A stretch of 64,000 nucleotides of DNA from an uncultured Acidobacteriota bacterium. GTDB taxonomy: Bacteria; Acidobacteriota; JAQAZP01. The position numbers and the translations under genes were made by a program. Shown piece by piece: positions 159 through 58,219 of this stretch; the first letter of the stretch is position 1, and each line of letters starts with the position of its first letter. The notes beneath the pieces are model-generated. The model made no database searches. It was not told where the DNA came from and saw nothing but the letters and a program-made list of their open reading frames with translations. Where the stretch lies: the NCBI GenBank assembly GCA_963836075.1, contig CAWIIB010000009.1:1760001-1824000 (forward strand), written 5' to 3'.

Positions 159-2627
159 ATGAAACGCATCCCATTCATCGTCGTCATGATCCTGTTTCTG
201 TTGCCCCTGTCCGGTTGGGCACTGGACACCGACACCAGGGTGGTCAGCCCGGTCCAATCGTGGAGTGAAGCGGACCTGGCCACCTTCCATGACGGGTGGA
301 TCTACGTGAAGTTCGTCGAGGGATCCGATGTGCTGCTGCGGGACGGGCGGTTCAGCGACGAGAGCGGTCTCCGGCTTCAGACGGTGAACGGCCTGCTCCA
401 GGCCAGCAGCGCCAGCGATGTCCGGCCCACCTTCAAAGGCGACCGCGACCGGTTCCGCCGGCTGAAAGCGTTTGGCGAGGCGAAGTCTGGCGTCACCGGC
501 CCGGATCTCTCCCTCTGGTTCACTCTGCAGGTCCCGGGCGGCAAGGCCGCCCTGGCCCACACGCTCAACGCGCTCAACGCCGACCCGGCGGTGGAGATCG
601 CCCACCCGGCGCCGCAGGTGGAACTGGCAACGGTCCGGCCGGACCACCCGGCCAAAGCCGCGGCGCCCGCGCCGGGCGGCACCCCCGATTTCACCGGCGA
701 GCAGCACTATCTCTACGACCCGCCGGTGGGGCTCAATGCCCCGGCGGCCTGGTCGATTCCCGGGGGCAAGGGCGCGGGGATGAAGTTCATCGACGTGGAA
801 CTGGCCTGGGTGGAAGACCACGAGGATTTCACGGCGGACAACCACTTTTACCTCGGCGGTGCCCCGGAAGATCCGGGGTACAACGACCACGGCACCGCGG
901 TACTGGGCGAGGTGGTGGGCACACACAACAGCTATGGTGTGGACGGCTTTGCCGCCGACGTCCAGTTCGGCATGGTGGCCATCGACATCAACCAGTATCC
1001 CGATACGGCGCAGTACTTCCAGGAGGCGGTGGACAACCTCGATGCCGGCGACGTCTGGCTCATCGAGTTGCAGATGTACCCCTCGGGCCGCGACGCCACC
1101 CCCATGGAATACGTGCAGGTGAACTACGACGTGATATGGACCGGTGTCTTCTCCCGCGGCGTGGTCTGCGTGGAGGCCGGGGCCAACGGCAGCCAGGACC
1201 TGGATTCCGCTGTCTGGGGCGGGATCTTCGACCGCACGGTACGTGATTCGGGCGCGATCATGGTCGGCGCCGGCACCCCCACCGGACGGGTGGCTGAGTC
1301 GTTCACCAACTACGGCAGCCGGATGGATGTCCACGCCTGGGGATCTCAAATTTACACCACCGGATACGGGGACGCTTACAACGGCGGATCACTGCAGACC
1401 GAATACACCGCAAGCTTTGGCGGCACCTCCGGTGCCTCGCCGATGATCGTCGGCTCCTCGCTCTGCCTCCAGGGTATCGCCAGGGCCAACCTCCTGCGGG
1501 TGCTCGAGCCATTGGAGCTGCGGGCACTGCTCCACGATACCGGCATCGAGCACCTCGACCCGTCGCGGGAGATCGGCCCGCGGCCCGATCTCAGCGCAGC
1601 GGCGGCGATGGTGCTCAGCCTCGGCACACCGGTGGTGATCTGCGGCCCCGGACCAGGGATCGGCAACCCGCCGACGGTGCGACTCTTCCCGCCGGAGCAG
1701 GACGCCGGGATGTTGAGCGAGTTCCCGGCCTACGGCGCTTCCGGCTACGGGGTCAATGTGGACTGCGGAACGGTGGGCGGACTATCGGGCACGATCATTA
1801 CCGGTCCCGGCCCGGGGGACATCTACGGCCCCCATGTCCGCGGATTCACCGGCGACGGCACGCCGTTGCCCAGCCTCAGTTTCCTGGCCTACGGCACGCT
1901 GAAATTCGGGGTCAACGTGACCCTCGGCGACCTTGACGGAGACGGTGCCGCCGAGATCGTCACCGGTGCAGGCCCCGGTGCGGTCTTCGGCCCCCATGTC
2001 CGCGCCTTCAGCTACAACGGGTCGTCGGTCACCCCGGTGCCCGGAGTGAGCTATTTCGCTTACGGCACCAACCAGTGGGGGGTCAACGTGGGCTGCGGGG
2101 ACATCGACGGGGACGGCAGTGACGAGATCGTCACCGGCGCCGGGCCGGGCGCCATCTTCGGCCCCCACATTCGCGGTTGGAACGTGGACGGCGGTCCGGT
2201 GGCCACCATCCCGGCGGTGAGCTTCTTTGCTTACGGCACCAACAGGATGGGGGCCAACGTGGCCTGCGGCGACGTGGATGGTGACGGGATCGACGAGATT
2301 CTCACCGCCCCCGGTCCCTCCGGCGTTTTCGGGGCACACGTCCGCGGGTGGAACTTTGACGGGGGCACCGTGGCGGCCATCCCGGGGATCAACTTCTTTG
2401 CCTGGGACTATCCCGCGGTGCGGTTCGGTGCGCGGGTCTCTTCGGGGATCGACTACAACGGGGACGGTGGGGAAGACATGCTGGTCTCCCCGGGCCCCGA
2501 TCCGGAGGCTCCCGCGCAGCTCAAGGTCTTCGGCTACGACGGTTCCACCACATCGCTGCTGTTCTCGCTCAATGCCTTCGATACCGGGATCACCCACGGG
2601 ATCAATGCCGCGGGTGGAATGATCTAG
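159..2627 (+). CDS. Secreted S8 (subtilisin-like) serine peptidase with C-terminal FG-GAP-like tail A
   Basis: Signal peptide; catalytic motifs FIDVE, DHGTAVLG, EAGAN, GGTSGASP; RBS AGAGGA upstream; tail repeats from about 1632. Confidence 0.9.
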   Translation: MKRIPFIVVMILFLLPLSGWALDTDTRVVSPVQSWSEADLATFHDGWIYVKFVEGSDVLLRDGRFSDESGLRLQTVNGLLQASSASDVRPTFKGDRDRFRRLKAFGEAKSGVTGPDLSLWFTLQVPGGKAALAHTLNALNADPAVEIAHPAPQVELATVRPDHPAKAAAPAPGGTPDFTGEQHYLYDPPVGLNAPAAWSIPGGKGAGMKFIDVELAWVEDHEDFTADNHFYLGGAPEDPGYNDHGTAVLGEVVGTHNSYGVDGFAADVQFGMVAIDINQYPDTAQYFQEAVDNLDAGDVWLIELQMYPSGRDATPMEYVQVNYDVIWTGVFSRGVVCVEAGANGSQDLDSAVWGGIFDRTVRDSGAIMVGAGTPTGRVAESFTNYGSRMDVHAWGSQIYTTGYGDAYNGGSLQTEYTASFGGTSGASPMIVGSSLCLQGIARANLLRVLEPLELRALLHDTGIEHLDPSREIGPRPDLSAAAAMVLSLGTPVVICGPGPGIGNPPTVRLFPPEQDAGMLSEFPAYGASGYGVNVDCGTVGGLSGTIITGPGPGDIYGPHVRGFTGDGTPLPSLSFLAYGTLKFGVNVTLGDLDGDGAAEIVTGAGPGAVFGPHVRAFSYNGSSVTPVPGVSYFAYGTNQWGVNVGCGDIDGDGSDEIVTGAGPGAIFGPHIRGWNVDGGPVATIPAVSFFAYGTNRMGANVACGDVDGDGIDEILTAPGPSGVFGAHVRGWNFDGGTVAAIPGINFFAWDYPAVRFGARVSSGIDYNGDGGEDMLVSPGPDPEAPAQLKVFGYDGSTTSLLFSLNAFDTGITHGINAAGGMI
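1632..2627 (+). repeat. Tail A module; other copies at 6242-7243, 20093-21106, 22484-23486, 25885-26886, 54069-55073
   Basis: Six repeats with consensus EIVTGAGPGAVFGPHVRGWNYDG...FFAYGTLKYGVNVACGDIDGDG. Confidence 0.92.
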
Positions 2628-2634
2628 CGCCGGG

Positions 2635-5600
2635 CTAGCCGAAGAGGTCGAAGTCGCCGCCGAGGACGCGGTCGATGCGGCCGGTGCGCCAGCCGTTCAC
2701 CCCGTCACGGACCAGCGGTGACGGTTGTTCACGGTAGCGGCGGACCACCGTGGCGTCGGACGGTTGCGCTTCGCCGAGGGCATCACCGGCCTGCTTGACC
2801 CAGTCGGCCAGGTTGTCCCCGGCCGGCTCGTCCGGTTGGGCGGCCACCCGGACCCGGGCCTTGTCGCGGTGGAAGCCCTTGCCGTCCTGGCCCTCCTCCG
2901 GGGTCTCGAAGACGTGCAGTCCGTGCTCCGGGGCGAGGAAACGGTGGGCGCCGTATCCCGATACCGCGGCCAGCAGGCGGTACGGTTCATCACCGTCGCC
3001 CGATTCTTCCAGCACCCTGAGTTCCATCCGGCGCACCCGGGCCCACTCCTTGTACATCGTGGCGATCCGTCGGGCGAAGCGGTTGTTGCCGCCGGCGGTG
3101 GGCGTCGTGTCGATGGCCGACTCCACCAGCAGAAAGGCGTCCCGCGGCTCGCTGTTGCGCACCGTCTCGCAGGCCGCGTCGAGGAGGAATAGCCGCTGGG
3201 CCAGGCGCTGGACCAGCTGGCGCGGCACCCGCTCGCGGATCCGCTCCCCGTCACCGGTGAGCCGTTGGAACAGCGAGCGGGCGGTGCCGAACCCGGCCTC
3301 GATCCTGTCGAGGTATTCCACCTCGCCGAGGATCGAGAAGCGGTAGGGTGTGGACCAGAAGTCCTCCTGGCCGGTGAGGTCCAGCGCCGCCTGCTTGGTG
3401 TCACGGAATTCGGCCGACTCCACCGCCGTCCTGATCCGCTCGAAATGGGTGGCCAGCAGCTCCACCTCGGCTGCCGTGCCCCGCGGGTCGAGCACCAGTT
3501 TGCCCAGGTCCCGGACATCCTCCTCACCGGTCATGGCCGGCTCAGGTTGGCCGGGTTCCTCTTCCGGGATGTCGGGAGCGTCCGGATCGACGAACTCCAC
3601 CTCCAGCCCCTCGGCACCCCGGCGGAGAAAGAGGAACTGGTCCCCCGAGGGTGCCTCGTGCCCCACGATGGCCGAGGCCAGCGGGGTGAGCAGGTAGCGC
3701 TCCACGGCCCGTTTCAGCGGCCGGGCGCCCAGCTCGGTGGTGAATCCCTTCTCCAGCAGAAACTCCAGGGCCGCCTCGTCCCAGACCACGACCCAGGAGC
3801 GGTTGCGCAGGCCGCGCCGCTGGAAGGCCTCCTCCAGTTCCTTGTTCAGGATGCGGCGGATCACCTCCCGGCCCAGGGGCCGGAAGATCACCACCCGGTC
3901 GAGGCGGTTGAGGAATTCCTTGCGGAAGGCCTTCTGCACCGCGTCCCGCACCTCCCCGGGGTTGAAGGGCGCCTTCTCGCCGGTGAAGCCGAGACCGCCG
4001 GCGCTGCTGATCGCCGCGCCGAGATTCGAGGTGAGGATGAACAGGGCGTGGCGGCAGTCGGTGGTCAGACCGCGCCAGTCGGTGAGCCGGCCGTCGTCGA
4101 AGACCTGGAGAAAGATATCCCAGACCCGGGGGTGGGCTTTTTCGAATTCGTCCAGCAGCACCACCGAGAAGGGCTGTTTGCGGATCTGCTCGGCCAGAGA
4201 GAGCCCGCGCACCTCGGACTGCTCCTCGCCGAAGATCCGGCCCATGCTGTCCGCGGTCTGCAGCTCGCTCATGTCCAGCCGGATCATCCGTTCCGGAGAG
4301 CCGAAGAGGAACTCGGCCAGGGTCTTGGCGATCTCGGTCTTGCCGGTGCCGGTGGGCCCGGCAAAGAGGAAGACTCCGAAGGGCCGGGTGGGATCGTTCA
4401 GCCCGGCCTTGATCATCGTCACCCGGTCCACCAGGCAGTCCACCACTTCGGGTTGGCCCACCACCCGTGAGGTGAACAGCTCGCGAAGACCGGTTATGTC
4501 CAGGGCCTGCCGCTCGTCCAGCAGGCTGGACGGCAGGCCGCTGGTCCGGGCCAGGGTTTCGATCAGGTCGTCGAGGGTCAGCGGCGTGTCGCAGGTGCCT
4601 CCCGGGCCGGCCACCCGGTGGCGGGTCTGCTCCAGCAGGTCCATCAGGCTCCCCGGAGCAGACCGGTGGGCCAGGTACTGGCGAGAGAGGAGCCAGGCCT
4701 CGCGGATGGTCTCCTCACTGAGCAGCGGTTGGCCCGAGCTGGTGGCCAGGCCGGCCGCCCACCGGCCGGCCAGCTGCTGCGCTTCCTCGGCCTGCATCGG
4801 CTCCAGGCGGAGGGCGTCGAAGGCGTCGGCACAGCGGTGGTGGGTCTGCAGCAGCTGTTCAAAGGCCCGGGTGGTCACCTCGCCCAGCACGGTGAACCGG
4901 CTGTTGGCGATCTGGGGCAGGATCACGTCGAGGACGCAGACCGGGCTGGCTGAGTGCTTGCCGGTGTAGGCCAGCATCTGGAAGGCGGGGACATACCACA
5001 GGATGCGGCGGCCGGTCAGCCGGTCGGTGAGCTGGCGCAGCCGTTCCTCCAGCTGGCCGATGTAGACCTGGCCGGCGAGGATGTCCGAGTGGTCCGCCTC
5101 GAAAATCACCCACCCCCGGGCCTGGAGCCGCTGGGCCAGGGTGCGTACCACGGTGGTCTTGCCGGTGCCGGCCTCGCCCACCAGCAGCATGGAACGGGGG
5201 GGCGTGCTCAGCACATTGGCCTCCAGCCGGTCCAACGCCTTCTCCAGCTCAGGTGTGCGTACCAGGCCCTTCGCCGGGGTGTCGCTCCAGACCCGGCCCA
5301 TGCCCTCCAGGAAGCTGATATCCACCGCTGTCCGCTCCATCTCCCGCAGCTCGGCAAGGAGCGGGTCGCCCAGCGAGCGGTCCAGCCGCTGGAGCAGTTC
5401 CACCAGCAGTTCCTTCTTCTCTTCTTCCAGCGGTCTGGTCAGCGAACCGAAGGTCAGTTTCTCACCTTCGGCCACCCTGGCGCGGGCCAGGTCCTCGAAA
5501 AAGGCGAAGGCCTGTGGATTCTGCCAGCTCTCCTCCATGGCGAGCAGGAAGGGGCCCACCAGCGGTTCGTCGGACGGCGTGTGGGCGCGCAGCATTTCCA

Positions 5601-6081
5601 GGCCGAAGAAGCGGGGCCAGGGGGCGATGTGGTTGAGCCTGGTGCGCACGTAGTCGTTCAGCTGCCCCCCGTCCGGCCTGCGGGCCAGCGATTCCAGGGC
5701 CATGCAGGAGAGCAGCTGGTTGTCGCCAAAGGCGAAATCGCGAACGTCGGTGATGGTGAAGGCCGAACTGAGCAGGTGGGCCACCGCCAGCTCGAACTCG
5801 TCGGTTCCCCGCAGGTCGGCCGGGTGGGCCGTGGACTGGTAGAAGCCTTCGATCTCCTGGGCAATGGTGTAGAGCTGGATCCGCAGGGCCACGGCGTCGC
5901 CGCGCTGGGGCGTGGGCGACGGCGGCTCCGGCTGCCCCTGCTTTCCCTCCAGGTCGGCGGGCAGATACGGTGTTTCCTGCACACTCCGCCGTTGCCGCGC
6001 TCTTTTGGCCAGGCGGTCGTTGACCAGGAACACGATGACCATGAACAGGATGCCGAGGCAGAACGCGCCGTAAAATTCCAT
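2635..6081 (-). CDS. Clp/Hsp100-type AAA+ ATPase with N-terminal TM helix and C-terminal release factor 2-like (PCRF) region
   Basis: Walker A GEAGTGKT and GPTGTGKT; D2 motifs VVLLDEFEKAH, DDGRLTD, EFLNRLD, GARPLKR; C-terminus resembles RF2 by eye (MYKEWAR, EHGLH, VRRY..P..LVRD...G..DRVLGGDFD). Confidence 0.85.
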   Translation of the reverse strand: MEFYGAFCLGILFMVIVFLVNDRLAKRARQRRSVQETPYLPADLEGKQGQPEPPSPTPQRGDAVALRIQLYTIAQEIEGFYQSTAHPADLRGTDEFELAVAHLLSSAFTITDVRDFAFGDNQLLSCMALESLARRPDGGQLNDYVRTRLNHIAPWPRFFGLEMLRAHTPSDEPLVGPFLLAMEESWQNPQAFAFFEDLARARVAEGEKLTFGSLTRPLEEEKKELLVELLQRLDRSLGDPLLAELREMERTAVDISFLEGMGRVWSDTPAKGLVRTPELEKALDRLEANVLSTPPRSMLLVGEAGTGKTTVVRTLAQRLQARGWVIFEADHSDILAGQVYIGQLEERLRQLTDRLTGRRILWYVPAFQMLAYTGKHSASPVCVLDVILPQIANSRFTVLGEVTTRAFEQLLQTHHRCADAFDALRLEPMQAEEAQQLAGRWAAGLATSSGQPLLSEETIREAWLLSRQYLAHRSAPGSLMDLLEQTRHRVAGPGGTCDTPLTLDDLIETLARTSGLPSSLLDERQALDITGLRELFTSRVVGQPEVVDCLVDRVTMIKAGLNDPTRPFGVFLFAGPTGTGKTEIAKTLAEFLFGSPERMIRLDMSELQTADSMGRIFGEEQSEVRGLSLAEQIRKQPFSVVLLDEFEKAHPRVWDIFLQVFDDGRLTDWRGLTTDCRHALFILTSNLGAAISSAGGLGFTGEKAPFNPGEVRDAVQKAFRKEFLNRLDRVVIFRPLGREVIRRILNKELEEAFQRRGLRNRSWVVVWDEAALEFLLEKGFTTELGARPLKRAVERYLLTPLASAIVGHEAPSGDQFLFLRRGAEGLEVEFVDPDAPDIPEEEPGQPEPAMTGEEDVRDLGKLVLDPRGTAAEVELLATHFERIRTAVESAEFRDTKQAALDLTGQEDFWSTPYRFSILGEVEYLDRIEAGFGTARSLFQRLTGDGERIRERVPRQLVQRLAQRLFLLDAACETVRNSEPRDAFLLVESAIDTTPTAGGNNRFARRIATMYKEWARVRRMELRVLEESGDGDEPYRLLAAVSGYGAHRFLAPEHGLHVFETPEEGQDGKGFHRDKARVRVAAQPDEPAGDNLADWVKQAGDALGEAQPSDATVVRRYREQPSPLVRDGVNGWRTGRIDRVLGGDFDLFG

Positions 6082-6241
6082 AACTGAAGGATCTCCTACC
6101 GCATCCTAAGCTTTCACTGTGAGGGAAATCAAGGAAGGCTGGTGGCAGGCCCGGTCATGTCCTGTTGCTCCTGAGCGATATCAGGGAGCATAGCGACAGG
6201 AGCGCAGGAGCAACAGGACATGACCGGGCGATATCGGACTC

Positions 6242-8917
6242 TCAGTCTCCGGTGCGGAAGAACTGTCCGCCGGCCACCCGTCCGCCGTGGGTCTGCCCGC
6301 TGATCGCGGAGAAATAAGCGGAGTAGATGATCTGCCCCGTGGCGGAGAGGCTGAAGTAACCCACGTTGCAACCGGTGCCCGGGTCCGGGCCCGGGGCCAC
6401 GATAAACTCGTCCGCACCGTCGCCGTCCAGGTCGGTGCAGGCCACCACGGCGCCGAAGTCGTTGCCGAGGGCGAAGAAGTTGACCTCGGACATGGGGTTC
6501 ACGGCAGCGCCGTCGTAGTTGAACCCGCGGATATGGGCGCCGAAGATCTCACCCGGCCCCGGTCCGGTGATGATCTCCGCCATCCCGTCGCCGTCGATGT
6601 CGCCGCAGGCCACGTTGACCCCGTATTTCAGCGTGCCGTAGGCGAAGAAACTCACTGCCGGGTTGGCAGAGGCCGGCGGGGCGCCGTCGTAGTCCCACCC
6701 GCGCACGTGGGGGCCGAAAACGGCGCCCGGTCCCGCGCCGGTGACGATCTCGTCGAACCCGTCACCATCGATGTCGCCGCAGGCCACGTTGACACCCCAC
6801 TTGAGCGTTCCGTAGGCGAAGTAGCTGGCCCCCGGCAGGGGGATCACCGGAGACGCACCGTCGTAATCCCATCCGCGCACGTGGGGACCGAAGACGGCGC
6901 CCGGTCCCGCGCCGGTGACGATCTCGTCAAAGCCGTCCCCGTCCAGGTCGCCGGCGGTCACATTGACCCCGTACTTGTTGGTGCCGTAGGCGAGGAAGGA
7001 GACCCCGGACAGCGGTGTGCCGTCCAGCTCAAAGGCCCGCACGTGGGGGCCGAACACCGCCCCCGGGCCCGGCCCGGTGAGGATCTCGTCGATGCCGTCC
7101 CCGTCCAGGTCGCCGGCGCCCGGGTTGGCGCCGTAGCGGTCAACCCCGTAGGGCACGATCTCTTCGCCCAACTGGTCGGTGTTGCGTTCAAAGGTCCGCA
7201 CCGCGCAGCGGTTTGTCCCGGCAGGGCCGGGGGCGACCACCGCCCCGCCAGTGCCTCTGAGCTTGTAGAGCAGCCAGAGGTCCGGGTCGAGAATCACTCG
7301 CGTGGGCTGCGGGAGCACGGCGATGGCATAGGTCTCGCTGGCCTGGTGCATTCTGACAGTCTCACGCTGCGTGCCCTCCGGCGTGACGATGGCCAGTTCC
7401 AGCGGCGTGTCGAACAGCGGGGTCTGCGCATTGACCTCCTGCACCTGGTCGACGGTCAGGGAGAGCACGCCCCCGGCCCAGCTCCACTCGTAGCGAAATT
7501 CGGGGTAACCGGCCAGGTAGACCCACTGCTGGAAGAAGGTCTCCAGGTCGAGACCCGAGATATCCTCGGCCGCGGCGATAAAGTCCTCGGTGGTGGCGGT
7601 GGAATAGGCGTGGCGAGTGGCGTACTCGTGGAAGATATCGGCGAACACCTCGTCCCCGGTCATCCGGCGCAGCATGTGCAGCACCCAGGAGCCCTTGTAG
7701 TAGACGGTGAGCCCAAACCAGTAGTCGGGGTCATAGAGCGGGTAGCGGCCCCAGGATTCTTCGTGGCTGAAATACTGCCGGCGGCGGTTCTCCATCCAGC
7801 CCAGGAAGCTGTCGCGGCCGTAGTGGTGTTCGTCGAACAGGGCGTCGAAGTAGGTGGCGAACCCCTCGTTGAGCCAGATGTTCTCCCAGCCGTGGCAACC
7901 AACCAGGTTGCCCCACCAGTGGTGGGCCAGCTCGTGGGCCACCACCCACTCCCAGTCCCGGGAGCCGGTGACCCACTGGGATTCCATGGTGACCATGGTC
8001 TGGTGTTCCATGGTGGACCCGGCGGCGGCCATGGCCTGGCCGAAGGTGGGATAGGGGTAGGGGTAGTAGTTGTCGGAGAAGAAGTCGATCATCTCCGGCA
8101 GGTTCTCCCAGTCGTAGACCGCGTCCTCCATCCGGTCGGGGTAGACGAAGTGTTTGAGCGGCACGCCGCCGGCAGTGGTCTGGGTGTAGTTGTCGTAGTC
8201 CGAGACGGCGAGCATGATCAGGTAGGTGGCGATGGAGTAGTCGTGAAAGTAGTTCCAGGTCATGGTGCCGTCGCCGTTGTCCACCGTGCTCAGCAGGTCG
8301 CCGTTGGAGGCCACCTTCATCGACTGCGGGGCGGTGATGTGCCCGCGGTACCAGTCGGCCCGGTCCTCGGGCAGGTCGCGGCAGGGATACCAGTAGCGGG
8401 ACCCTTCCGGCTCGGTGATCGTCCAGCAAACGCCCCCATTCTGGTCGTCGAAGTGCAGTCCGGTCACCGGTGTTCCGTGGTAGCTGATGGCGAACGACCG
8501 CTCCTCGTCGAGGCCCATGGGCGTGGCCGGCTGAATAATCAACGCCGCGTCGTTGTGATGCCAGGACACCGGGATGGCCCCGCTCTCCACCACGTCCAGA
8601 ACCGTCATCTGCACCAGATCGAGGGTAAAGCCGGTGCACCCCGCTTCCAGGCTGCGCACGCCCACGGTGCAGACGGCGCTGATATATTCCGCGTCGAAGT
8701 CGAGGGTGATGTCGATTTCGTAGGAGACCACATCGATGTTGTCGCTGGAAGAGCTCTCCCTGGTTTCGTGGTTGCGGTGTTCCCAGGCGGGTGCGGGCTG
8801 TGGACCCTTGCCGGCATCGAGGATTTCGTCAGGGATCCTCGCCTCCAGTGGGGCTGAGGGAAGAAGGCCGAGAACGAGGACAAGAAGAAGGACTGCTGCA
8901 CCGCTGCGATTGCGCAT
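6242..8917 (-). CDS. Secreted M1 family zinc aminopeptidase with tail A
   Basis: Signal peptide; HELAHHWWGN...WLNEGFATY (HEXXH-X18-E), STMEH, YYKG; tail repeats in 6242-7243. Confidence 0.92.
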   Translation of the reverse strand: MRNRSGAAVLLLVLVLGLLPSAPLEARIPDEILDAGKGPQPAPAWEHRNHETRESSSSDNIDVVSYEIDITLDFDAEYISAVCTVGVRSLEAGCTGFTLDLVQMTVLDVVESGAIPVSWHHNDAALIIQPATPMGLDEERSFAISYHGTPVTGLHFDDQNGGVCWTITEPEGSRYWYPCRDLPEDRADWYRGHITAPQSMKVASNGDLLSTVDNGDGTMTWNYFHDYSIATYLIMLAVSDYDNYTQTTAGGVPLKHFVYPDRMEDAVYDWENLPEMIDFFSDNYYPYPYPTFGQAMAAAGSTMEHQTMVTMESQWVTGSRDWEWVVAHELAHHWWGNLVGCHGWENIWLNEGFATYFDALFDEHHYGRDSFLGWMENRRRQYFSHEESWGRYPLYDPDYWFGLTVYYKGSWVLHMLRRMTGDEVFADIFHEYATRHAYSTATTEDFIAAAEDISGLDLETFFQQWVYLAGYPEFRYEWSWAGGVLSLTVDQVQEVNAQTPLFDTPLELAIVTPEGTQRETVRMHQASETYAIAVLPQPTRVILDPDLWLLYKLRGTGGAVVAPGPAGTNRCAVRTFERNTDQLGEEIVPYGVDRYGANPGAGDLDGDGIDEILTGPGPGAVFGPHVRAFELDGTPLSGVSFLAYGTNKYGVNVTAGDLDGDGFDEIVTGAGPGAVFGPHVRGWDYDGASPVIPLPGASYFAYGTLKWGVNVACGDIDGDGFDEIVTGAGPGAVFGPHVRGWDYDGAPPASANPAVSFFAYGTLKYGVNVACGDIDGDGMAEIITGPGPGEIFGAHIRGFNYDGAAVNPMSEVNFFALGNDFGAVVACTDLDGDGADEFIVAPGPDPGTGCNVGYFSLSATGQIIYSAYFSAISGQTHGGRVAGGQFFRTGD

Positions 8918-20092: not shown

Positions 20093-22306
20093 TCAGAATC
20101 GTCCTGCAGCCACCTTTGTCCCGTGAGTCCACCCTTCGGGGTAGGCCTCGAAGGAGAACCAGAGCGTGGCCTGCAGCCCATCGTATGTGAAGACCTTCAC
20201 CGGTGATCCCACTGTCGGATCCGGGCCGCCTCCCACCACGATCTCGTTCCGGCCGTCATCGGTGAGATCGGTGCCGGCAAAAATCTCGGCGCCGTATCGC
20301 GCCTGTTCCAGCGGCCAGGCAAAGAAGCTCAGCCCGGGCATCGGAGCCACCTCAGCCCCGTCGTAGTTCCAGCCGCGGATGTGGGCTGGGAAAAGCGCGC
20401 TCGGGCCTGGAGCGGTGATGATCTCTTCCATGCCGTCGCCGTCCACATCGCCGCAGGTTACTTCCACACCGAACTTGTTGGTGCCGTAGGCCATAAAACT
20501 CACTCCGGGTATGGGGTCGGTGTGCGGGTCGGAGGAGGTGATGAAGCAGTTCCAGCCGCGCACGTGGGGCCCGAAAACCGCCCCGGGACCGGCACCGGTG
20601 ACGATCTCGTCCCTGCCGTCACCGTCGATGTCGCCGGCGGCCACGTTGACCCCCCACTTGTTGGTCCCGTAGGCGAAGAAATTGACGCCGGGCACGGGGA
20701 AGGATCCGGTACCACCATCGCTAAGGAAGGCCCGGACGTGGGGACCGAAGACCGCTCCCGGACCGGGGCCGGTGATGATCTCGTCATGCCCATCGTTGTC
20801 GATGTCTCCGGCTGCGACGTTGACACCCCACTTGTGGGTTCCGTAGGCAATAAATGACGTATAGGGGACAGCATACCCGCTCGGTTCGAAAATACGGACG
20901 TGGGGCCCGAAAACGGCGCCCGGCCCGGCGCCGGTGATAATTTCGGGGGTATCGTCATCGAACAGGTTGCCGGTGGTCACATTGGCTCCGTAGTGTTGGG
21001 AGGAATACGCGTTGAACTCCTCCACCTGCAGCGGGTCCTGGCCCGGGATGAACAGACGTACCCTTGTCGGGTTGTCATATGCCGGACCGGGGCCGGTGAC
21101 CACGGCAGGGCCGTCGTTGGTGCTGAACAGGTCGCTCCACTCGTACTCCAGCCGCGGCGTGTTGCCCGGATCGAGACGCCCCTGGACCCAGATGGTCATC
21201 TCCTCCCGGCCGCGATACGCGACGCTCATCTTGTGCAGGCCGCTCGATCCCATCAGCGACCAGTGGCTCTGCAGGTCCTTGGTCCCGCCCTGGTCGTAGT
21301 AGTCGGCCATGAACTCGGCGCCCGCCGGGGTGTAGGTGCCGTCAGTCCAGGCGTTGGCGGTGAGCAGCACGTCGCCACCGAAGTAGGAGGCCTTGGGCGT
21401 ACGGAGGTCGTAGAAGCCCGAGTCCCGGCTGCAGGTGAAGACGCCGCCGTAGCCAACGGGTACGAAGCAGTTGATGAAGCTGCCGGTCCAGGTGTGGACC
21501 CCTTCCAGATCATGCCAGGAATCGTAGAGGTGTTCATCGATGGACGAAAACCAGTTTGGCTCGGTTGTAATGTAACGCGCCGCCGCGGTGCGCAGCAGGG
21601 CGTCGGCGTGGGGCACGCCGCCGGTGTTGTAGTCGTGCAGCGAGACCTGGGTGCCGTATTCGTTGAGCGTGGTGATGCCCACCACATAGCCGGCCCAGGA
21701 GAGACCCAGCCAGGCAGTGCCGTCACTGGGCTCCCAGGCGCAGAGCACGTGGTGGTTGATCGAGGTGTAGGGGCTGCCGAAGTCGAGGCGGCGGGTGGAG
21801 AGGGTTTTCACCGGCGGCTCGACGAACTGGCCCCAGCAGGAGTGGGAGCGGCAGGCCGGCGGGTAGCTCCAGTCGCCATACCCGTTGGCCACCTTGAGGT
21901 CCAGTTTGTCGATACTCTCCCCGGGGTACAGTTCGGCCAGGGCGTCCACCATGCCGTCCAGTTCACTCTCGATCACCACCGGCATCCAGGTGGCGTCGTC
22001 CATGGCCTGACGCATGGCGTCGTAGCCGCTGCCCAGGATTGACACCATGTCGTTGTGTATGGCAACGATCTCGTCGGCCAGCAGGTAGCCATGGGCATAG
22101 CCCATATCGTAGTGCGAACCCCAGACGTGGAGAACCGTGTAGCCCTTGCCCTCGGCGTCCACCTGCTGGTCGAGAATCACGCCGTTGACGGCCAGGGCCG
22201 GAAGAGCGGCTATTGAAAAGAGAATGAAAACGAAAAAGGCGATGCCGGCGGTGGACCATAACGAAGAGTGATCAATGGAGCGGTTCGGAATCTTGAGATG
22301 AGCCAT
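20093..22306 (-). CDS. Secreted C45-like/Ntn-hydrolase protein with tail A
   Basis: VWGSHYDMGYAHG, a putative autocleavage Cys (ACRSHSCWG), STRRLDF, TTLNEYG; GGAGG RBS at start 22306. Confidence 0.7.
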   Translation of the reverse strand: MAHLKIPNRSIDHSSLWSTAGIAFFVFILFSIAALPALAVNGVILDQQVDAEGKGYTVLHVWGSHYDMGYAHGYLLADEIVAIHNDMVSILGSGYDAMRQAMDDATWMPVVIESELDGMVDALAELYPGESIDKLDLKVANGYGDWSYPPACRSHSCWGQFVEPPVKTLSTRRLDFGSPYTSINHHVLCAWEPSDGTAWLGLSWAGYVVGITTLNEYGTQVSLHDYNTGGVPHADALLRTAAARYITTEPNWFSSIDEHLYDSWHDLEGVHTWTGSFINCFVPVGYGGVFTCSRDSGFYDLRTPKASYFGGDVLLTANAWTDGTYTPAGAEFMADYYDQGGTKDLQSHWSLMGSSGLHKMSVAYRGREEMTIWVQGRLDPGNTPRLEYEWSDLFSTNDGPAVVTGPGPAYDNPTRVRLFIPGQDPLQVEEFNAYSSQHYGANVTTGNLFDDDTPEIITGAGPGAVFGPHVRIFEPSGYAVPYTSFIAYGTHKWGVNVAAGDIDNDGHDEIITGPGPGAVFGPHVRAFLSDGGTGSFPVPGVNFFAYGTNKWGVNVAAGDIDGDGRDEIVTGAGPGAVFGPHVRGWNCFITSSDPHTDPIPGVSFMAYGTNKFGVEVTCGDVDGDGMEEIITAPGPSALFPAHIRGWNYDGAEVAPMPGLSFFAWPLEQARYGAEIFAGTDLTDDGRNEIVVGGGPDPTVGSPVKVFTYDGLQATLWFSFEAYPEGWTHGTKVAAGRF

Positions 22307-22405
22307 TGTGCCCTCCGCAGGTTGGACGTAATCCGGAAGTAATCGCTTCATCAATGAGAGAATTTATATCACGATGAGAGAGGGCCGGCAACGGTGGGGT
22401 AGCAC

Positions 22406-22483: not shown

Positions 22484-25400
22484 CTAGAAATCCCCTCCGG
22501 CGATCTTACCTCCCTGGACCAGTCCCAGGTCACCATAGGCGTCGAAGTCGATGGTGGTGATGGGCGTCGCCGTTCCGCCGTCCACGTTCCAGGCCCGGGC
22601 CAGGGCCGTCTGGGACGGGTCGGGTCCAGGCATGGTCAGGATCTCGTCAGTCCCGTCTCCGTCCACGTCCGCACCAGCCACCTGCGCACCGTAGAGGGCG
22701 CCGGGGTAGGCGAAGAAGTTGACTCCGGACAGTGAAGTCACCGTGCCGCCATCGTAGTTCCACCCCCGGACCTGCGGTCCGAAGACCACACCCGGTCCGG
22801 GACCGGTGATGATCTCGTCGATCCCGTCGCCGTCGATATCGGCACAGGCCACGTTGACACCGTATTTCAGGGTGCCGTAGGCGAAAAAGCTCACCGCGGG
22901 GATGGATGCGGCCGCGCCGCCGTCGACGTTCCAGCCGCGGACGTGCGGACCGAAGACAGCCCCCGGGCCGGCGCCGGTGACGATCTCGTCGTAGCCGTCG
23001 CCGTCGATGTCACCGCAGTCCACGTTGACCCCCCACTTCAGCGTCCCGTAGGAGAAATAGCTGATGCCGGGGATGGATGCGGCCGCACCGCCGTCCACGT
23101 TCCAGCCGCGGACATGGGGCCCGAAGACGGCCCCCGGGCCGGCGCCGGTGATGATCTCGTCATTGCCGTCGCCGTCGACGTCGCCGCAGGCCACGTTTAC
23201 TCCATACTTCAGTGTGCCGTAGGCGAAGTAGTTGACACCGCTCACGGGAGTGCCGCTGCCGCTAAAGGCCCGGACGTGGGGGCCGAAGATGGCGCCGGGC
23301 CCCGGCCCGGTGACGATCTCGTCGGTACCGTTACCGTCAAGGTCACCGACGGCCACGTTGACGCCATACCCGTCCGCGCCGTAGGCCGACCACTGGGTGA
23401 TGGCGGAAGTGGGGTTGGCGGCATTCCAGGTGCGCACCAGGGTGGGGTTCGCCTGGGCCTGGCCGGGTCCGGTGACCAGCTTCAGCGAACTGGGGGCGGC
23501 AGCGGTGGTGGCGCTGAGCATCAGTTCGTCGACCACGATACGCCCCTCGTCGGAGCCCCATGACGGGCCACAGTCGAAGCGGATCGCCGCCACGTTGGCC
23601 AGGTTGAGGCCGGAACCGTTGTTGAGGAAGTCGGTGAGCCGGATGCGGGTCACTTCCATCTCGTTGTGCCACCCGCTGCTGCGGTCGTAGGGCTGCTCCA
23701 GGCCGCCGCCATACGCCCCGATGTTGATCGAGCTGGTGTTGCCGCTGCCGTCGCGCAGGGTGACGCTGAAGGTCAGGTCGCCCATGACGGCCAGCGTGTT
23801 GGGGTGCCGTGTTCCCTGGGCCCCGCGGAAGGAGAAGTAGTCGTAGTCGGCAAAGTTGCTCAGTCCGGGAACGACTTCCCATTCGATGTAGTGGTCGGCC
23901 CCGGTCCAGTCGAAGACCACCCCCGCGCTGTCGTCTGATCCCTGCGACGAGGCCTGGGTCGCCCCATTGAACGGGTCGCTGGCCGACCAGGCGAAACTGC
24001 TGGTGCTGTCGTCCATACGGCCTTCCGTCACGTTCTCCACCGTGAAGGTGACGGCCCCCCCGGAGCTGCTGACCATGGTGGACGGGCTGCTCTGGAAGTC
24101 GTCGATATAGGCGGTTGTTGACGGGTCACCGTTGCGATACTCGTGGGTCACCACGATGCAGGGGTTGGTGACATCCACGCCGATGGGGTGGAAGCGTTCA
24201 TACTGCCGCCAGAGGAAGTCGTGGGCCGGGATGTTGCCTTCGATGTAGTGCTTGACCAGCGGCAGGAAATATCCCTGCTGGATGAGGTGCGTGTTCTCCT
24301 CGCCGATGGAGCAGGGCCCGGTGAACCAGGAAGTGCCGCCGCCGTCGTGGAACCAGCCGTGGCCGGTGCCCTGCACCACCGTCGACTGCCGGTGGCTGGT
24401 GGCCCGGTCGTGCAGGTGGAAGGTCTGGCAGAGGTCGCAGCCCGCCGAGCCGTCGACGTCCGCGTCCCCCGCGGCCGTCCAGAGGTGGTAGTTGACATCG
24501 TGGGGGTTGGAGCTGTTGGTCTTGAGAAAATCGGTGGGCAGCATGCTGCTCAGTAGTTTTATATCGCTGATGGTGAAGTTGTCCGGGGTGTACGCTCCGT
24601 CGAAGAGCCGGTCGTAGGCCCGGGCAATCCCCTCGCCGCCGCGGCTGTGGCCGATCCAGGTGATGGCGTGGGAGTTGAGGTGCCCGTCCAGCACGCCCCC
24701 GCCGATGGAGCCCTGGTTACCGATGATGTAGTCGGTATTGGTCAGCGTGGTGGTGGAGGCGGTCTCGATCCCCGGCCCGGTGTTGTTCTGGTGAGACATG
24801 ACGATGTAGCCATAGGAGGCCAGGTGGTAGCCGATGTGGTCATACCAAATATATTGGTGGCCGTTGCCGTGGCTGATAACCACCAAGGGCAGCTGGCCCA
24901 TGGTGGCGATGTCGGTGGGGTAGTAGAGATCCTGGCCGAGATAAGACCCGCCGCTGTAGATGATCTCGGTCACATCCAGCGGGCCGGGCTGGGTGGTGTC
25001 GTGCACCATGTAAAATCCGGCCTCGCTGCCGAAACCGTCGATGTAGTCCGGGTCGTCCAGCTGGCCGTTCTGGTTCATGTCGACGACCACGTCATACCCC
25101 ACGCCGAGGCCGGTGCCGGCATCGGCGTCGAGGGTGTCGGCCGCGGCCACCACCCGGCGGTTGTCCTGGATCGAGGCCCCGCTGAAGGTGATGGCCAGCG
25201 GTCCACCGGCCACGTCGGTCAGCGCCGGGTCCGATGTCCACTGGGCTTCGTCTTTCGCCTCGACGATATAGATGTCCGCCGTTTGACCCACGATGCCCGG
25301 GAAACGGAAGGGGTCCATGGCCACGCGCACTTCGGCATCGACGTTGATTGCCCTGACATACTCAAAATAGGGGTAGACGGGACTGTTGTTGCCGGCAAGC

Positions 25401-25507
25401 TCGGTTCGCTGCCCGGCAGGCGGAGGCGCAGCCTGGGCAATGCCTGTGGCGACGATCAGCAGCAAAGCCGCTGTGAGTAGTGAGGCCGTGAAGGCTCTAC
25501 ACACCAT
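22484..25507 (-). CDS. Secreted alpha/beta-hydrolase-fold protein with tail A
   Basis: LPLVVISHGN, HLASYGYIV, nucleophile elbow GHSRGG; signal peptide from ATG 25507 (the ORF extends to 25615). Confidence 0.8.
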   Translation of the reverse strand: MVCRAFTASLLTAALLLIVATGIAQAAPPPAGQRTELAGNNSPVYPYFEYVRAINVDAEVRVAMDPFRFPGIVGQTADIYIVEAKDEAQWTSDPALTDVAGGPLAITFSGASIQDNRRVVAAADTLDADAGTGLGVGYDVVVDMNQNGQLDDPDYIDGFGSEAGFYMVHDTTQPGPLDVTEIIYSGGSYLGQDLYYPTDIATMGQLPLVVISHGNGHQYIWYDHIGYHLASYGYIVMSHQNNTGPGIETASTTTLTNTDYIIGNQGSIGGGVLDGHLNSHAITWIGHSRGGEGIARAYDRLFDGAYTPDNFTISDIKLLSSMLPTDFLKTNSSNPHDVNYHLWTAAGDADVDGSAGCDLCQTFHLHDRATSHRQSTVVQGTGHGWFHDGGGTSWFTGPCSIGEENTHLIQQGYFLPLVKHYIEGNIPAHDFLWRQYERFHPIGVDVTNPCIVVTHEYRNGDPSTTAYIDDFQSSPSTMVSSSGGAVTFTVENVTEGRMDDSTSSFAWSASDPFNGATQASSQGSDDSAGVVFDWTGADHYIEWEVVPGLSNFADYDYFSFRGAQGTRHPNTLAVMGDLTFSVTLRDGSGNTSSINIGAYGGGLEQPYDRSSGWHNEMEVTRIRLTDFLNNGSGLNLANVAAIRFDCGPSWGSDEGRIVVDELMLSATTAAAPSSLKLVTGPGQAQANPTLVRTWNAANPTSAITQWSAYGADGYGVNVAVGDLDGNGTDEIVTGPGPGAIFGPHVRAFSGSGTPVSGVNYFAYGTLKYGVNVACGDVDGDGNDEIITGAGPGAVFGPHVRGWNVDGGAAASIPGISYFSYGTLKWGVNVDCGDIDGDGYDEIVTGAGPGAVFGPHVRGWNVDGGAAASIPAVSFFAYGTLKYGVNVACADIDGDGIDEIITGPGPGVVFGPQVRGWNYDGGTVTSLSGVNFFAYPGALYGAQVAGADVDGDGTDEILTMPGPDPSQTALARAWNVDGGTATPITTIDFDAYGDLGLVQGGKIAGGDF

Positions 25508-25823
25508 GCCGTAATTCTCCCTGCCGGATCTTTCTCTAATTGTGGTCACGAAGTTCTCCTTCTCACCTGTTCGAGGTTCCGGAGGGCATGGCCGGTGGCC
25601 CCCGGTGATCGACACCTACCTGATAGTTTGGAGACGATGCGCCTGTTCCTCATCACCGGGCTGGCTGGCACGCGGGGCAAAGTCCCCGCACCCCGCGACC
25701 GGTTCCCACCATGGGAAACCACCAGGCCGCGGAGGAAGGTGCCGTGCACGGCACCGGTGTCACTGACATCGCGGTGGAGGAAGTTGTGCAGGCGTCCGGC
25801 AAGAATAATAGCACACTGACGAC

Positions 25824-28365: not shown

Positions 28366-29005
28366 CTTTACTCTCCTTTACTCTGGGTGCTTCATTGAGA
28401 AACGGTTGACACGCTGAGAGACAATTCCAACCCCCAACCATTCCACGGCAAAAGACAACCACTATTCCAACGCCAACGAAATCCTCACGGCCTCCACGGT
28501 CGTGAACACCTCCCGGAATGGCCATCGACTGCTCGCCAGTCCGGCTCGCACCGCCAATGCCATTACTTTCGCGACCGAACCAGAGCTCGATGCGATCGCA
28601 GATGTTGAAAAAAAGACGTGATGAGATTCAGATATTGCTTGAGATTATTATTACCTGCGCGTCCTGCGCACCATATACTTAAGATAAACTGCCCTCTGCC
28701 CGATCGTCAAGTCTATGTTTCAATTATTGAGCTTCCGGTGCTTTCTCCAATACGAAATTTGTTACGATTCTCCACAGGGCCGGCCGACTGCTGAAACGGT
28801 TTGACCCTGCCGGATCGCTCTTTACAGGGCACCATGCGCCGTTTTCAGCCCCGCAGCAGAGATTTGGTGACTATTGCCGGACGGGCGCGTGGTTGTCGCC
28901 CGGAAAGTAGTGTTAGAATCACCTTGTTGGCCTGCCGGACCGCTGAACCGTCCAGCCTGGAGGCCAAATCTCCACCGATCGGGTTTCCAGCGGCTGAAAT
29001 GGACA

Positions 29006-37632: not shown

Positions 37633-37995
37633 TAATCCTGGGCCAGTTCACCCATTTGTTGCGCCGGATGCATGTCATCCTGAGACGATTGACGCATGCG
37701 TCGGTAAGTGCAACATCATCAAACATTACGGAATTTACAGGAGGGAGGTCCGTCTGAATATGTCCGGTAAAATATTCGTTGCATATAATACCTATAGTGT
37801 ATATATTCAATTGCGCTGCACTGGATGACAAGGAATCTGCAATACAGGTTGACAGACTGTTGTATGCCTTGGCCTCTTTGCGTCCTTCCAACTAAAACCT
37901 GATCGAACTTCAAGGCCCTCGGTATCTGTTTTTCAATGAGTATTGCCGTGGAGCTGAACAACTGCGACACACAACAAACAAGAGGAGTCAGGCCA

Positions 37996-51088: not shown

Positions 51089-51467
51089 CCAACTTGGTCT
51101 CACCGGCCTGACCCTGGAAGCAAGGCCGTTTCACTCCCTTAGAGTAGCGTTGATACTGGCCGGACTGATGATCCATACTGGCTGAAGTGTCCTTCGCAGG
51201 TCTCAGTGCTGACAACCCGGTTTTCCGCCCGGTGCCCAGCAGACTGCCGACTGCACCCTCTGATCTCCGGCCCCGATCGCGCTCTTCCTGGTCCGCATGG
51301 ACCAGGCCGCGACGAGCATTTACCGGCCCCGGCGGCCGGAGCGGACCGACCGGCACCTCGAGCTGTCCCAGCCGGGGTTCCGCGCCATGGTCACGGTGCC
51401 GGGGCACGAGGCCGAAGATGTTATAGTCAGACAGGAGACCTTACAGAACGAAACAGAGAGGGAGAAA

Positions 51468-57000: not shown

Positions 57001-57300
57001 AGCCTGACTGCAACGGTATCCGCATCCCGGTTGGCCGAGGCCAGGTCCGGACGACCGTCACCATTCAGGTCGGCAACGACCACCGAATACGTCGCCTCGC
57101 CAACCGAGGTACTCGAACTGCCCTTCGAACAGAATGGCCGCTTCAGCCGCCTGGGGCATGGCAACATGGGAGAAGATCGTGAAGAGAATCATAGCCGTGA
57201 GAACGGCCAGGATATTGAAGGGGGGAGTGCGGCGTTCGGCGGAAAAGGCAAGCAACCGGGCAAAGCAGACGACGACCGTGAGTTCTGCTCGTGTATCCAT
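54069..57300 (-). CDS. Secreted FG-GAP/VCBS repeat protein with tail A; apparent +1 frameshift near 57108 separates the leader peptide
   Basis: About 13 DLDGDGxxDLAVAN...VSILLGxGDGTF repeats; leader in ORF 57058-57300; QFEYSVGEAT is restored by removing one C. Confidence 0.85.
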
Positions 57301-57583
57301 GAAAAGCCTCTTAATCTTGGATACTAGGTAAAAGGCTGTTCATTCGTCAAGCCGAACTTTGTCTGCACAGTGCCTGATTGGCGGCCATTCTTGAAGCGGT
57401 TCAGAGCTTGCGGATTTCCTAACGCAGGTTCGATGGCTGGCTGCGGAAGCGGCGCTGGTGAAGGTCATCGGGGAATGATAGCCACCTGAATGATCAGATG
57501 CTCCAATAATCTACACTTTTAGTGTCACACCTGCTATGGTGAGTCAATAGAGTCAATAGTATGTGGGGAGGAAACGAGGATAC

Positions 57584-58085: not shown

Positions 58086-58219
58086 CCGCCACACGACGGC
58101 CCGGTGCAGCTGGACCAGTTCGGCCGGGCGATCGCTCGCTGGGATTCTTGACGCCAGGAAAGGAAGTCCCTATCCTTTTCCGCATTGGTCTCCGCTGCAG
58201 AAAACTCGGGATTCTCAAA

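Follow-up and report, generated by a model that had tools for sequence, protein, structure and literature searches.

We analyzed a 64-kb window (64,000 nucleotides; positions 1,760,001 to 1,824,000 of the forward strand of contig CAWIIB010000009.1, assembly GCA_963836075.1) from an uncultured Acidobacteriota bacterium. Our subject is a gene on the minus strand of this window, whose product (P0001) joins a Clp/Hsp100-type ATPase to a C-terminal module that, by profile and structure comparison, is homologous to peptide chain release factor 2 (RF2). The gene is a single uninterrupted open reading frame (ORF) of 1148 codons plus stop, encoding a protein of 1148 aa. A first-pass annotation of the same DNA had described positions 2635-3420, which are the last 262 codons of the gene including the stop (residues ~888-1148), as a release factor-like region without a GGQ domain, fused to a Clp/Hsp100 ATPase, and had suggested a role in translation quality control. 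The features of the gene are listed in Table 1. We regard the overall anatomy as nearly certain: a membrane anchor, a linker, an N-terminal domain, a hydrolysis-dead first ATPase ring (D1), a live second ring (D2), an acidic linker and counterparts of RF2 domains 1, 2 and 4.

Table 1. Features of the Clp-RF2 gene and of the spacer upstream of it. Residues are those of P0001, positions those of the window. AF2, AlphaFold2; pLDDT, predicted local distance difference test; HMM, hidden Markov model; DSSP, secondary structure assignment.
Feature	Residues	Positions	Strand	Basis
Whole gene, P0001		2635..6081	-	ORF list and translation; 188 full-length relatives of 1000-1400 aa
N-terminal hydrophobic helix, probable membrane anchor, followed by Arg/Lys cluster	2-33	5983..6078	-	AF2 helix, pLDDT 86-96 per 10-residue block
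Pro/Glu-rich linker	34-59	5905..5982	-	pLDDT <50 for residues 35-51; length varies in family alignment
All-alpha helical-repeat N-domain, in place of Clp_N	60-260	5302..5904	-	AF2 and DSSP: helices only, pLDDT mostly 95-98
AAA+ ring D1	~275-500	4582..5259	-	Alignment with E. coli ClpB and ClpA
AAA+ ring D2 (Pfam AAA_2)	~520-730	3892..4524	-	Pfam AAA_2, E 2.9e-43; family counts
ClpA-IGL-type loop GGLGFTG, putative ClpP-docking loop	695-701	3979..3999	-	Alignment; ClpB has a 3-residue gap there
D2 small domain, sensor 2 GARPLKRA at 785-792	736-815	3637..3876	-	Pfam ClpB_D2-small, E 5.1e-15
End of D2-small region and acidic Pro/Glu/Ala-rich linker	816-860	3502..3636	-	Alignment
RF2 domain-1-like four-helix region	870-975	3157..3474	-	Family profile, hhalign, AF2 helices, conservation
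RF2 domain-2-like beta/alpha region	982-1081	2839..3138	-	Family profile, AF2, Foldseek, hhalign
Short insert with QPDEP motif and one helix in place of domain 3	1082-1111	2749..2838	-	AF2, strand distance, HMM
RF2 domain-4-like region (VVRRYRE.PSPLVRD...WRTGR.DRVL.GDFDL)	1112-1148	2638..2748	-	Weak HMM stretch, AF2, conservation
28-nt inverted repeat, putative terminator		6149..6229	.	Between the stop of the upstream gene and the start of P0001

Considered as a single sequence, P0001 gives only borderline evidence of the release factor homology. Its match to the Pfam PCRF domain falls just short of the gathering score (E 9.2e-5; 22.8 bits versus 24), the match to the NCBIfam prfB model stays below the cut-off (E 6e-4; 18.9 versus 370 bits), and in a phmmer search of the Protein Data Bank (PDB) RF2 appears at E ~0.09, ranked under chance matches to a zinc-finger protein. 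A profile of 30 family C-termini, searched against the PDB, matches E. coli RF2 at E 3.5e-18, with profile positions 4-190 aligned to RF2 residues 9-200 and a weak second stretch around RF2 residues 320-351. Almost all PDB matches of this profile at E ≤ 1 (41 of 44) are RF1, RF2 or mitochondrial release factors, and the other three have E values of at least 0.29. RF2 stands above RF1 (E 3.5e-18 versus about 1e-12). The individual family members agree with this picture: the PCRF domain is detected at E ≤ 0.01 in 28 of the 30, and the NCBIfam prfB and RF1 models match 28 and 20 of them, respectively, while the model for PrfH, another release factor relative, matches none at E ≤ 0.01.

Comparisons at the level of alignments and structures lead to the same result. 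Aligned by hhalign to E. coli RF2 and RF1, the 30-member alignment gives a probability of 98% (E 2e-13) over 160 columns. The AF2 model of residues 861-1148, built on the same alignment, has a mean pLDDT of 93.6 and a predicted TM-score (pTM) of 0.91. Foldseek found 52 matches to this model in the PDB at E ≤ 1e-3, and all of those listed (ranks 1-50) are class-I release factors. RF2 in 7oj0 ranks first (E 1.8e-12), the highest TM-score (0.58) is obtained with free RF2 (1gqe), and the alignments extend over the full length of the release factors. Collectively, the sequence profiles and the modeled structure indicate that the C-terminal 288 residues are homologous to RF2. The five peptide strings on which the first-pass annotation had based the RF2 likeness are all present in the C-terminal part of P0001, in the order given there, and the likeness of residues ~890-1148 to RF2/PCRF is upheld by the family profile, hhalign and Foldseek alike, all with significant values. 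Its N-terminal boundary does have to be corrected, since the module begins about 27 residues earlier, near residue 861 (window 3501), and thus includes the first helix of RF2 domain 1.

The module has the same fold as RF2 (prfB; structures 1gqe, 5mgp and 7oj0), with domains 1, 2 and 4 in the same order and the core motifs in place. The domain-1-like helices in the AF2 model span residues 870-887, 890-903, 914-942 and 954-975 (module positions 10-27, 30-43, 54-82 and 94-115). The domain-2-like unit, which includes helix alpha5 (MY..WA..RRM) and the E.GLH strand, is built as strand-helix-strand-strand-helix-strand-strand. The domain-4-like region consists of two strands and a helix (residues 1112-1146). 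The module and E. coli RF2 both have the W..P.R turn, the MY..WA motif of alpha5 and the E.G.H strand, and both close with R.Y...D..RTG....VL.G..D. We assessed conservation in 188 full-length family proteins (1000-1400 aa), leaving out 79 shorter ones. Domain 4 is the best-conserved stretch, with a majority residue at 80% or more in 27 of the 33 positions 1113-1145. It is followed by the domain-1 motif FW.SP.RF.VLG..EY.DRIEAG and helix alpha5. The whole module is under strong purifying selection. Compared with E. coli RF2, the family is more basic in both domain 2 (median net charge +1 versus -2) and domain 4 (+2 versus -1).

What distinguishes the module from RF2 is the loss of domain 3 with its GGQ motif and of the SPF tripeptide. 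In P0001 the loop at the SPF position (residues 1060-1074) reads TPEEGQDGKGFHRDK and contains no SPF. This loop is 12-13 residues long in 115 of 154 motif-matched proteins (of the 188), where only a proline and F.R at its ends are conserved, and a single protein of the 188 has SPF anywhere in its last 330 residues. GGQ occurs in the same region in three of the 188, and the Pfam RF-1 domain, which carries GGQ, has no match in P0001 at E ≤ 10. Moreover, the distance between strand 4 (E.G.H) and strand 6 (R.Y), measured in 176 of the 188 proteins (the other 12 had no motif match), has a median of 56 residues (range 38-83) versus 126 in E. coli RF2, in which GGQ lies 53 residues after strand 4. 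The shortened distance implies that ~70 residues, corresponding to domain 3, have been deleted. Their place is taken by the short insert, whose single helix (residues 1091-1104; module positions 231-244) is put by the second HMM stretch at the end of the long RF2 helix. The absence of both SPF and the whole GGQ domain, claimed earlier from the letters of P0001, is thus confirmed by the domain search, the strand distance and the family counts. Because the GGQ domain is missing, the module, although derived from RF2, is predicted to be incapable of peptidyl-tRNA hydrolysis; judged by its sequence, it is not a release factor. It also differs from RF2 in ending right after the domain-4 helix and in being fused behind an ATPase of 860 residues. 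The linker between the two, located by motif in 149 family proteins, has a median length of 27 residues and a median net charge of -5.

The ATPase body bears out the assignment of P0001 to the Clp/Hsp100 type. Pfam places AAA_2 at residues 566-729 and ClpB_D2-small right after it (E values in Table 1), and a second, earlier P-loop lies at residues ~296-365. The two tandem AAA+ modules align with E. coli ClpA and ClpB across both rings, as in class-I Clp/Hsp100 proteins. Nevertheless, P0001 does not belong to any of the named subfamilies we compared. The NCBIfam ClpB and ClpA models match it at about 1e-87, far under their ortholog cut-offs. The scores versus equivalog cut-offs are 294.8 versus 1232.1 bits for ClpB, 290.7 versus 993.15 for ClpA and 232.5 versus 884.95 for ClpV, and the ClpK and ClpG models, at about 230 versus 1900 bits, are likewise under the cut-off. 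These scores indicate a Clp/Hsp100-type ATPase outside the ortholog groups of ClpA, B, C, V, K and G. With ClpA/ClpC and ClpB it shares two AAA+ rings, with AAA_2 and the D2 small domain. Like ClpA, it has no ClpB-type middle domain, as seen when ten members are aligned with E. coli ClpB and ClpA, and has a hydrophobic-Gly-Phe loop at the position of the ClpA IGL loop. In contrast to these ATPases, it has no Clp_N but a membrane helix and a helical-repeat domain, it has lost the D1 Walker B motif, the D1 arginine fingers and the D2 pore tyrosine, and it has gained the C-terminal RF2-like module.

The two rings have diverged in opposite ways, as revealed by aligning the 188 proteins with E. coli ClpB and ClpA. 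D1 of P0001 has a Walker A motif (GEAGTGKT, residues 302-309) and a tyrosine-bearing pore loop (336-347), while its Walker B is degenerate (ILWYVPAF, 360-367) and its arginine fingers (416-422) are lost. Across the family, the Walker A lysine is present in 182 of 188 proteins and the pore-loop aromatic residue in 180 (Y 139, F 39, W 2). In Walker B the aspartate is replaced by proline in 172 proteins and the catalytic glutamate is retained in 12; the two arginine-finger positions hold arginine in four and in none. Since the Walker A lysine is kept, whereas Walker B and the arginine fingers are gone, D1 should bind nucleotide without hydrolyzing it. D2, with Walker A at residues 575-582, Walker B at 640-650, sensor 1 at 683-688 and the arginine finger at 723-728, keeps all of its motor residues: the Walker A lysine in 187, the Walker B aspartate in 186 and glutamate in 187, and the arginine finger and the sensor-2 arginine in all 188 proteins. 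Its pore loop (618-630; window 4192-4230) is shorter by three residues than the ClpA and ClpB loops and has a mean net charge of about -2, with Gly, Ala, Ser, Glu and Asp abundant. We know of no described Clp ATPase that combines a dead, tyrosine-bearing D1 with an aromatic-poor, acidic D2 pore.

A further feature of D2 is the loop that follows sensor 1. In ClpA, ClpX and ClpC, a tripeptide composed of a hydrophobic residue, glycine and phenylalanine or leucine docks the ATPase onto ClpP. At the corresponding place the family has [ILVM] in 182, Gly in 187 and Phe in 187 of the 188 proteins. The near invariance of this [ILVM]-G-F loop suggests ClpP docking, and on this ground we infer that the P0001 family may be coupled to ClpP.

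The N-terminal part differs from that of canonical Clp proteins. Residues 1-300 have no Pfam or NCBIfam match at E ≤ 10, and Clp_N is not found there. A hydrophobic stretch (19-residue Kyte-Doolittle window of at least 1.6) occurs within the first 70 residues of 159 of the 188 proteins, or of 172 when the threshold is set at 1.2, and membrane-like windows elsewhere in the protein are seen in 17. The hydrophobic helix is followed by a cluster of Arg and Lys, which by the positive-inside rule would give an N-out/C-in topology with the bulk of the protein in the cytoplasm. The AF2 model of the N-terminal part was built on a 22-sequence alignment (pLDDT 85.1). The helical-repeat domain in this model has no Foldseek match in the PDB at E ≤ 1e-3 and no usable match in the ESM Atlas, and the weak rows of the PDB search include several repeat proteins of ARM, HEAT, TPR and PUF type.

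P0001 is not a one-off. A search of a clustered protein database with the module found 434 proteins at E ≤ 1e-3 among 8000 candidates scored. Most of them are 1100-1300 aa long and, where named, are called 'AAA family ATPase' or 'ClpC'. PCRF (PF03462) is precomputed on ~109 of 120 listed relatives, by manual reading of the result tables, and is not assigned to P0001 itself. An exhaustive search of cluster representatives produced 753 at E ≤ 1e-3, 483 at E ≤ 1e-10 and 247 at E ≤ 1e-30; among the best 150 of the 753, the match in long representatives lies at the C-terminal end. Using an 11-sequence alignment, we also found 291 stretches encoding a relative in contigs representing one genome per species, and analyzed 80 of these loci. 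According to their titles, tallied manually, 22 loci belong to Pyrinomonadaceae, 11 to other Acidobacteriota, 7 to Eisenbacteria, 6 to Deltaproteobacteria/Thermodesulfobacteriota and 5 to Calditrichia. Gemmatimonadota, Actinomycetota and sequences labeled Heliomicrobium have 4 each, Planctomycetota, Methylomirabilota/Rokubacteria, Bacteroidota and Alphaproteobacteria 2 each, and Latescibacterota and Verrucomicrobiia 1 each, with 7 unclassified. The closest relative of P0001 among them (P0004 in locus L001) is 88% identical. The same uninterrupted architecture recurs in the 188 full-length proteins and at all 81 loci, the window included. The survey proposed by the first-pass annotation thus reveals a widespread family of class-I Clp/Hsp100-type ATPases with a fixed architecture.

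Some of the shorter family members match the module region alone. Among the 79 proteins below 1000 aa, 27 align only to residues of P0001 from 830 onwards; their starts are scattered over 858-1000, and 14 of the 27 have Met as their first residue. Truncated gene calls are the likely explanation; this reading covers the best 150 of the 753 representatives, and a true stand-alone form may exist.

To look for conserved neighbors, we clustered 3330 ORFs of at least 100 aa from the 80 loci and the first 20 kb of the window by all-against-all BLASTP. Of these loci, 54 have at least 2 kb of upstream and 65 at least 2 kb of downstream sequence. Within the 81 loci no conserved neighbor was found: the Clp-RF2 gene itself is the only one present in all, and the next clusters (75, 74, 23, 21, 17 and 16 loci) consist of ORFs that overlap it in a different frame. 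The largest clusters of true neighbors encode an S46 peptidase, an M48 peptidase and aconitase (14, 13 and 12 of 81 loci, respectively). As all of these loci are of the Pyrinomonadaceae type, we attribute the clusters to lineage synteny and reject the three genes as operon partners.

We found no published description of a Clp-PCRF or Clp-RF2 fusion in full-text literature searches, which had been suggested along with the original proposal. A survey of release factor evolution (PMC6514570) mentions neither 'Clp' nor 'PCRF' in its main text, where AAA+ is brought up for Cdc48 alone. Even if undiscussed, the architecture is already visible in databases, as PCRF is marked on most relatives.

Three known systems offer partial parallels. 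Plant plastid PrfB3 is described as an RF2 relative that has lost both functional tripeptides, SPF and GGQ, acts off the termination pathway and binds RNA (PMC5897788). The likeness to the P0001 module is at the level of this description. Furthermore, as described there, PrfB3 is a stand-alone organellar protein acting on the 3' UTR of one mRNA, whereas the P0001 module is part of a bacterial AAA+ fusion. Precedents for a dead release factor paralog (Dom34) and for a release factor-like protein working with an AAA+ ATPase (Vms1-Cdc48) on stalled ribosomes are reported in PMC6514570. Dom34/Pelota and Vms1-Cdc48 resemble P0001 in logic only: their fold is unrelated (eRF1 superfamily, not bacterial RF2), they are separate polypeptides and the ATPases are different. 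Finally, PrfH is described as a release and rescue factor that pairs with RtcB in a ribosome repair module. It is a specialized RF2 paralog acting on abnormal ribosomes, as we propose for the P0001 module, but the latter has no GGQ domain, does not match the PrfH model and has no RtcB neighbor.

How might such a protein work? We tentatively lean toward the ribosome as the target of the RF2-derived module, holding this with somewhat less than even confidence. According to this model, the module would serve as a targeting domain that brings a membrane-tethered hexamer, carrying six modules, to the ribosome. There it would take the places of RF2, with domains 2 and 4 at the decoding center of the small subunit and domain 1 at the stalk base, without reading a stop codon. 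The D2 motor would then remodel or extract something on the ribosome, either the nascent chain or ribosomal proteins; alternatively, the outcome could be degradation by ClpP docked on the [ILVM]-G-F loops. The logic would be like that of dead eRF1 paralogs and their ATPases (Dom34/Pelota) and of Vms1 with Cdc48. Several considerations are in favor of this model. Purifying selection this strong, acting on the whole module in many phyla, would be expected from a partner that is itself universally conserved, like the ribosome, and the basic character of domains 2 and 4 relative to E. coli RF2 also speaks for it. The module is conserved across more than ten phylum-level labels and has no co-located partner gene, and a partner of this kind is most simply the ribosome. 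The N-terminus of RF2 points away from the ribosome, so that attachment of the ATPase at this end through a flexible linker seems compatible with docking in the A site. The N-terminal membrane helix, in turn, argues for action at the membrane. It is also conceivable, as a speculation, that the acidic D2 pore loops suit very basic clients such as ribosomal proteins.

A more specific version would be an undescribed pathway of ribosome-associated quality control or ribosome turnover. In it, a membrane-tethered, ClpP-coupled hexamer would use the dead RF2 module as an A-site probe and would extract and degrade nascent chains or basic ribosomal proteins, for whose gripping the acidic D2 pore loops without tyrosine might have become specialized. 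We consider this version rather doubtful, although, if true, it would represent a fused, convergent counterpart of Pelota/ABCE1 or Vms1/Cdc48.

A number of observations weigh against ribosome targeting and against the pathway built upon it. RF2 reads the stop codon with the tip of alpha5, the SPF loop and the switch loop. None of these elements is conserved in the family: the alpha5 tip (its N-terminus) and the switch-loop stretch before domain 4 are variable, and SPF is nearly always absent. Therefore, any recognition would not be that of a stop codon. In D2, the column of the ClpB GYVG tyrosine is a gap in 186 of the 188 proteins, and any Y, F or W within the 13-residue pore loop is found in only 28. 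With the sole live ring having no pore tyrosine, it is difficult to see how substrates would be threaded into ClpP in the classical way. At the 81 loci, genes for translation, rescue or ClpP are not conserved as neighbors. All 80 analyzed loci, spread over more than ten phylum-level labels, come from metagenome-assembled genomes. In addition, the off-termination role described for PrfB3 means that the RF2 fold can be repurposed.

The loss of the stop-codon-reading elements and of a conserved switch-loop region would also be in keeping with a module that works off the ribosome and has been repurposed to gate a membrane-anchored Clp protease, either as an adaptor for proteins or peptides or as a regulatory domain. 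It might bind a degron, a small partner akin to ArfA, or the ATPase, thereby controlling either substrate choice or activity. ArfA binds the domain 2/4 sheet of RF2 by strand addition. The sheet can thus accommodate a small protein, and ArfA-RF2 and BrfA-RF2 complexes are among the Foldseek matches of the module. Clp ATPases commonly bear accessory domains for binding substrates or adaptors, and the ClpP-type loop together with the membrane anchor would fit a dedicated protease. However, a family-specific partner would be expected to co-evolve with the module and often to be encoded nearby, and no neighbor is conserved; that domain 4 and the domain-1 motif are so highly conserved over more than ten phylum-level labels fits a universal partner better. 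We therefore judge an adaptor role unlikely, though it deserves to be taken seriously. Less probable still is that the module binds RNA away from the A site, in the manner of PrfB3, and tethers or hands over RNAs or ribonucleoproteins to the ATPase. PrfB3, itself without SPF and GGQ, is described as binding the petB 3' UTR (PMC5897788), and the domain 2/4 region of our family is more basic than that of E. coli RF2. Yet PrfB3 exists in plants as a protein of its own and has a target particular to that lineage, whereas the family studied here spans many phyla with no conserved neighboring gene or RNA. Moreover, no Rfam family is present in the window and the acidic D2 pore loops would be unfavorable for threading RNA.

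Two other explanations fare worse. The protein could be the sensor-effector of a system of anti-phage or inter-bacterial conflict, with the dead RF2 module detecting damaged or hijacked ribosomes and the ATPase triggering a response. PrfH, an RF2 paralog described as acting on toxin-damaged ribosomes, would be a parallel, and PADLOC models of AAA+ defense proteins do match the D2 core (DolB at E 3e-32 on residues 528-687). These matches (DolB and PDC-M37B) are, however, limited to the generic AAA+ core (residues 528-688), the PrfH model matches none of the 30 members at E ≤ 0.01, and neither RtcB nor any other partner is conserved, the neighbors being housekeeping genes that differ between lineages. 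The high sequence conservation is also unlike that of fast-evolving defense genes. A conflict role accordingly seems highly improbable to us. As to whether the RF2 likeness is due to chance, or the gene is an assembly chimera or a decaying pseudogene, the borderline single-sequence scores (PCRF below its gathering score, phmmer E ~0.09) might seem to point this way. Against this, the profile, profile-profile and structural matches are highly significant and the uninterrupted architecture recurs in all 188 proteins and 81 loci. We consider an artefact of this sort refuted to the point of being negligible.

Rescue of stalled ribosomes in bacteria is thought to rest on tmRNA, ArfA with RF2, ArfB, and RqcH-type ribosome-associated quality control. 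To our knowledge, a Clp motor directed to the ribosome in its own right takes part in none of these four routes. In the family described here, an AAA+ motor equipped with a ClpP-type loop and a membrane anchor is fused to a probe that is shaped like a release factor and has no catalytic domain. Should this probe bind ribosomes, the family would provide a testable link between the state of the ribosome and ATP-dependent proteolysis at the membrane, and a natural example of the RF2 decoding superdomain uncoupled from catalysis. In that case, the unusual AAA+ design, with a dead D1 having the pore tyrosine and a live D2 without it, would also challenge the standard threading model. If it does not bind ribosomes, the family would still be the first case we have found in which a chaperone or protease has reused the bacterial RF2 fold as an accessory domain. 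In either case, family members are common in phyla that abound in soils and sediments and have been little studied, and they are annotated as no more than 'AAA family ATPase' or 'ClpC'.

In the window, the genes on either side of the Clp-RF2 gene encode secreted peptidases (S8 and M1) that carry FG-GAP repeats; the one on the plus strand converges with it, the stop codons being 7 nt apart. Lgt and a transporter are also encoded nearby, and none of these neighbors is related to translation. The whole 64 kb contains no ClpP, ribosomal, tmRNA or rescue gene, and an Rfam scan of both strands found no family at the gathering score. Scanning positions 2300-6500 for promoters found no promoter-like site, and terminator-like sites in the same range all fall inside coding sequence, in a number close to the shuffle expectation. 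The 160-nt spacer between the stop of the M1-peptidase/FG-GAP gene and the start of the Clp-RF2 gene harbors a 28-nt inverted repeat (6149-6176 and 6202-6229; 96% complementary, 25-nt loop). It occurs once in the window, is absent from L001, the locus of the 88%-identical relative, and from all 84 compared loci, and may represent either a terminator or a small insertion. The last ~60 nt before the ATG of P0001 are common to the window and L001. Given this shared stretch and the inverted repeat upstream, the gene looks like its own transcription unit, which the candidate terminator may isolate.

The M1-peptidase/FG-GAP gene differs between the two loci. In L001, the Clp-RF2 gene is directly preceded by a short ORF (~7180-7362) whose end is nearly identical to the C-terminus of the 891-aa M1-peptidase/FG-GAP protein of the window, while the rest of that gene (window 6242-8917) has no counterpart in L001 according to ORF clustering. 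The difference could reflect a rearrangement, a remnant or an assembly difference.

FG-GAP-repeat proteins are frequent in this region: seven large ones are encoded in the 64 kb, at 159-2627(+), 6242-8917(-), 20093-22354(-), 22484-25615(-), 25885-28365(-), 37936-39579(+) and 54069-57167(-). Two of the seven also contain a fused peptidase domain (S8 in one, M1 in the other). The first two (159-2627 and 6242-8917) have signal-peptide-like N-termini, and their C-terminal repeat regions look like paralogs. Elsewhere in the window, two adjacent, overlapping genes, 57563-59428(+) and 59425-60552(+), both match the citrate synthase family, and the product of the former starts with an extension of ~250 residues that matches no Pfam family. 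Radical-SAM proteins, one of them with a SPASM domain, are encoded at 28874-30364(+) and 51297-53969(+) near glycosyltransferase genes, and an AMP-binding/DUF2889 fusion lies at 47708-51088, near radical-SAM proteins.

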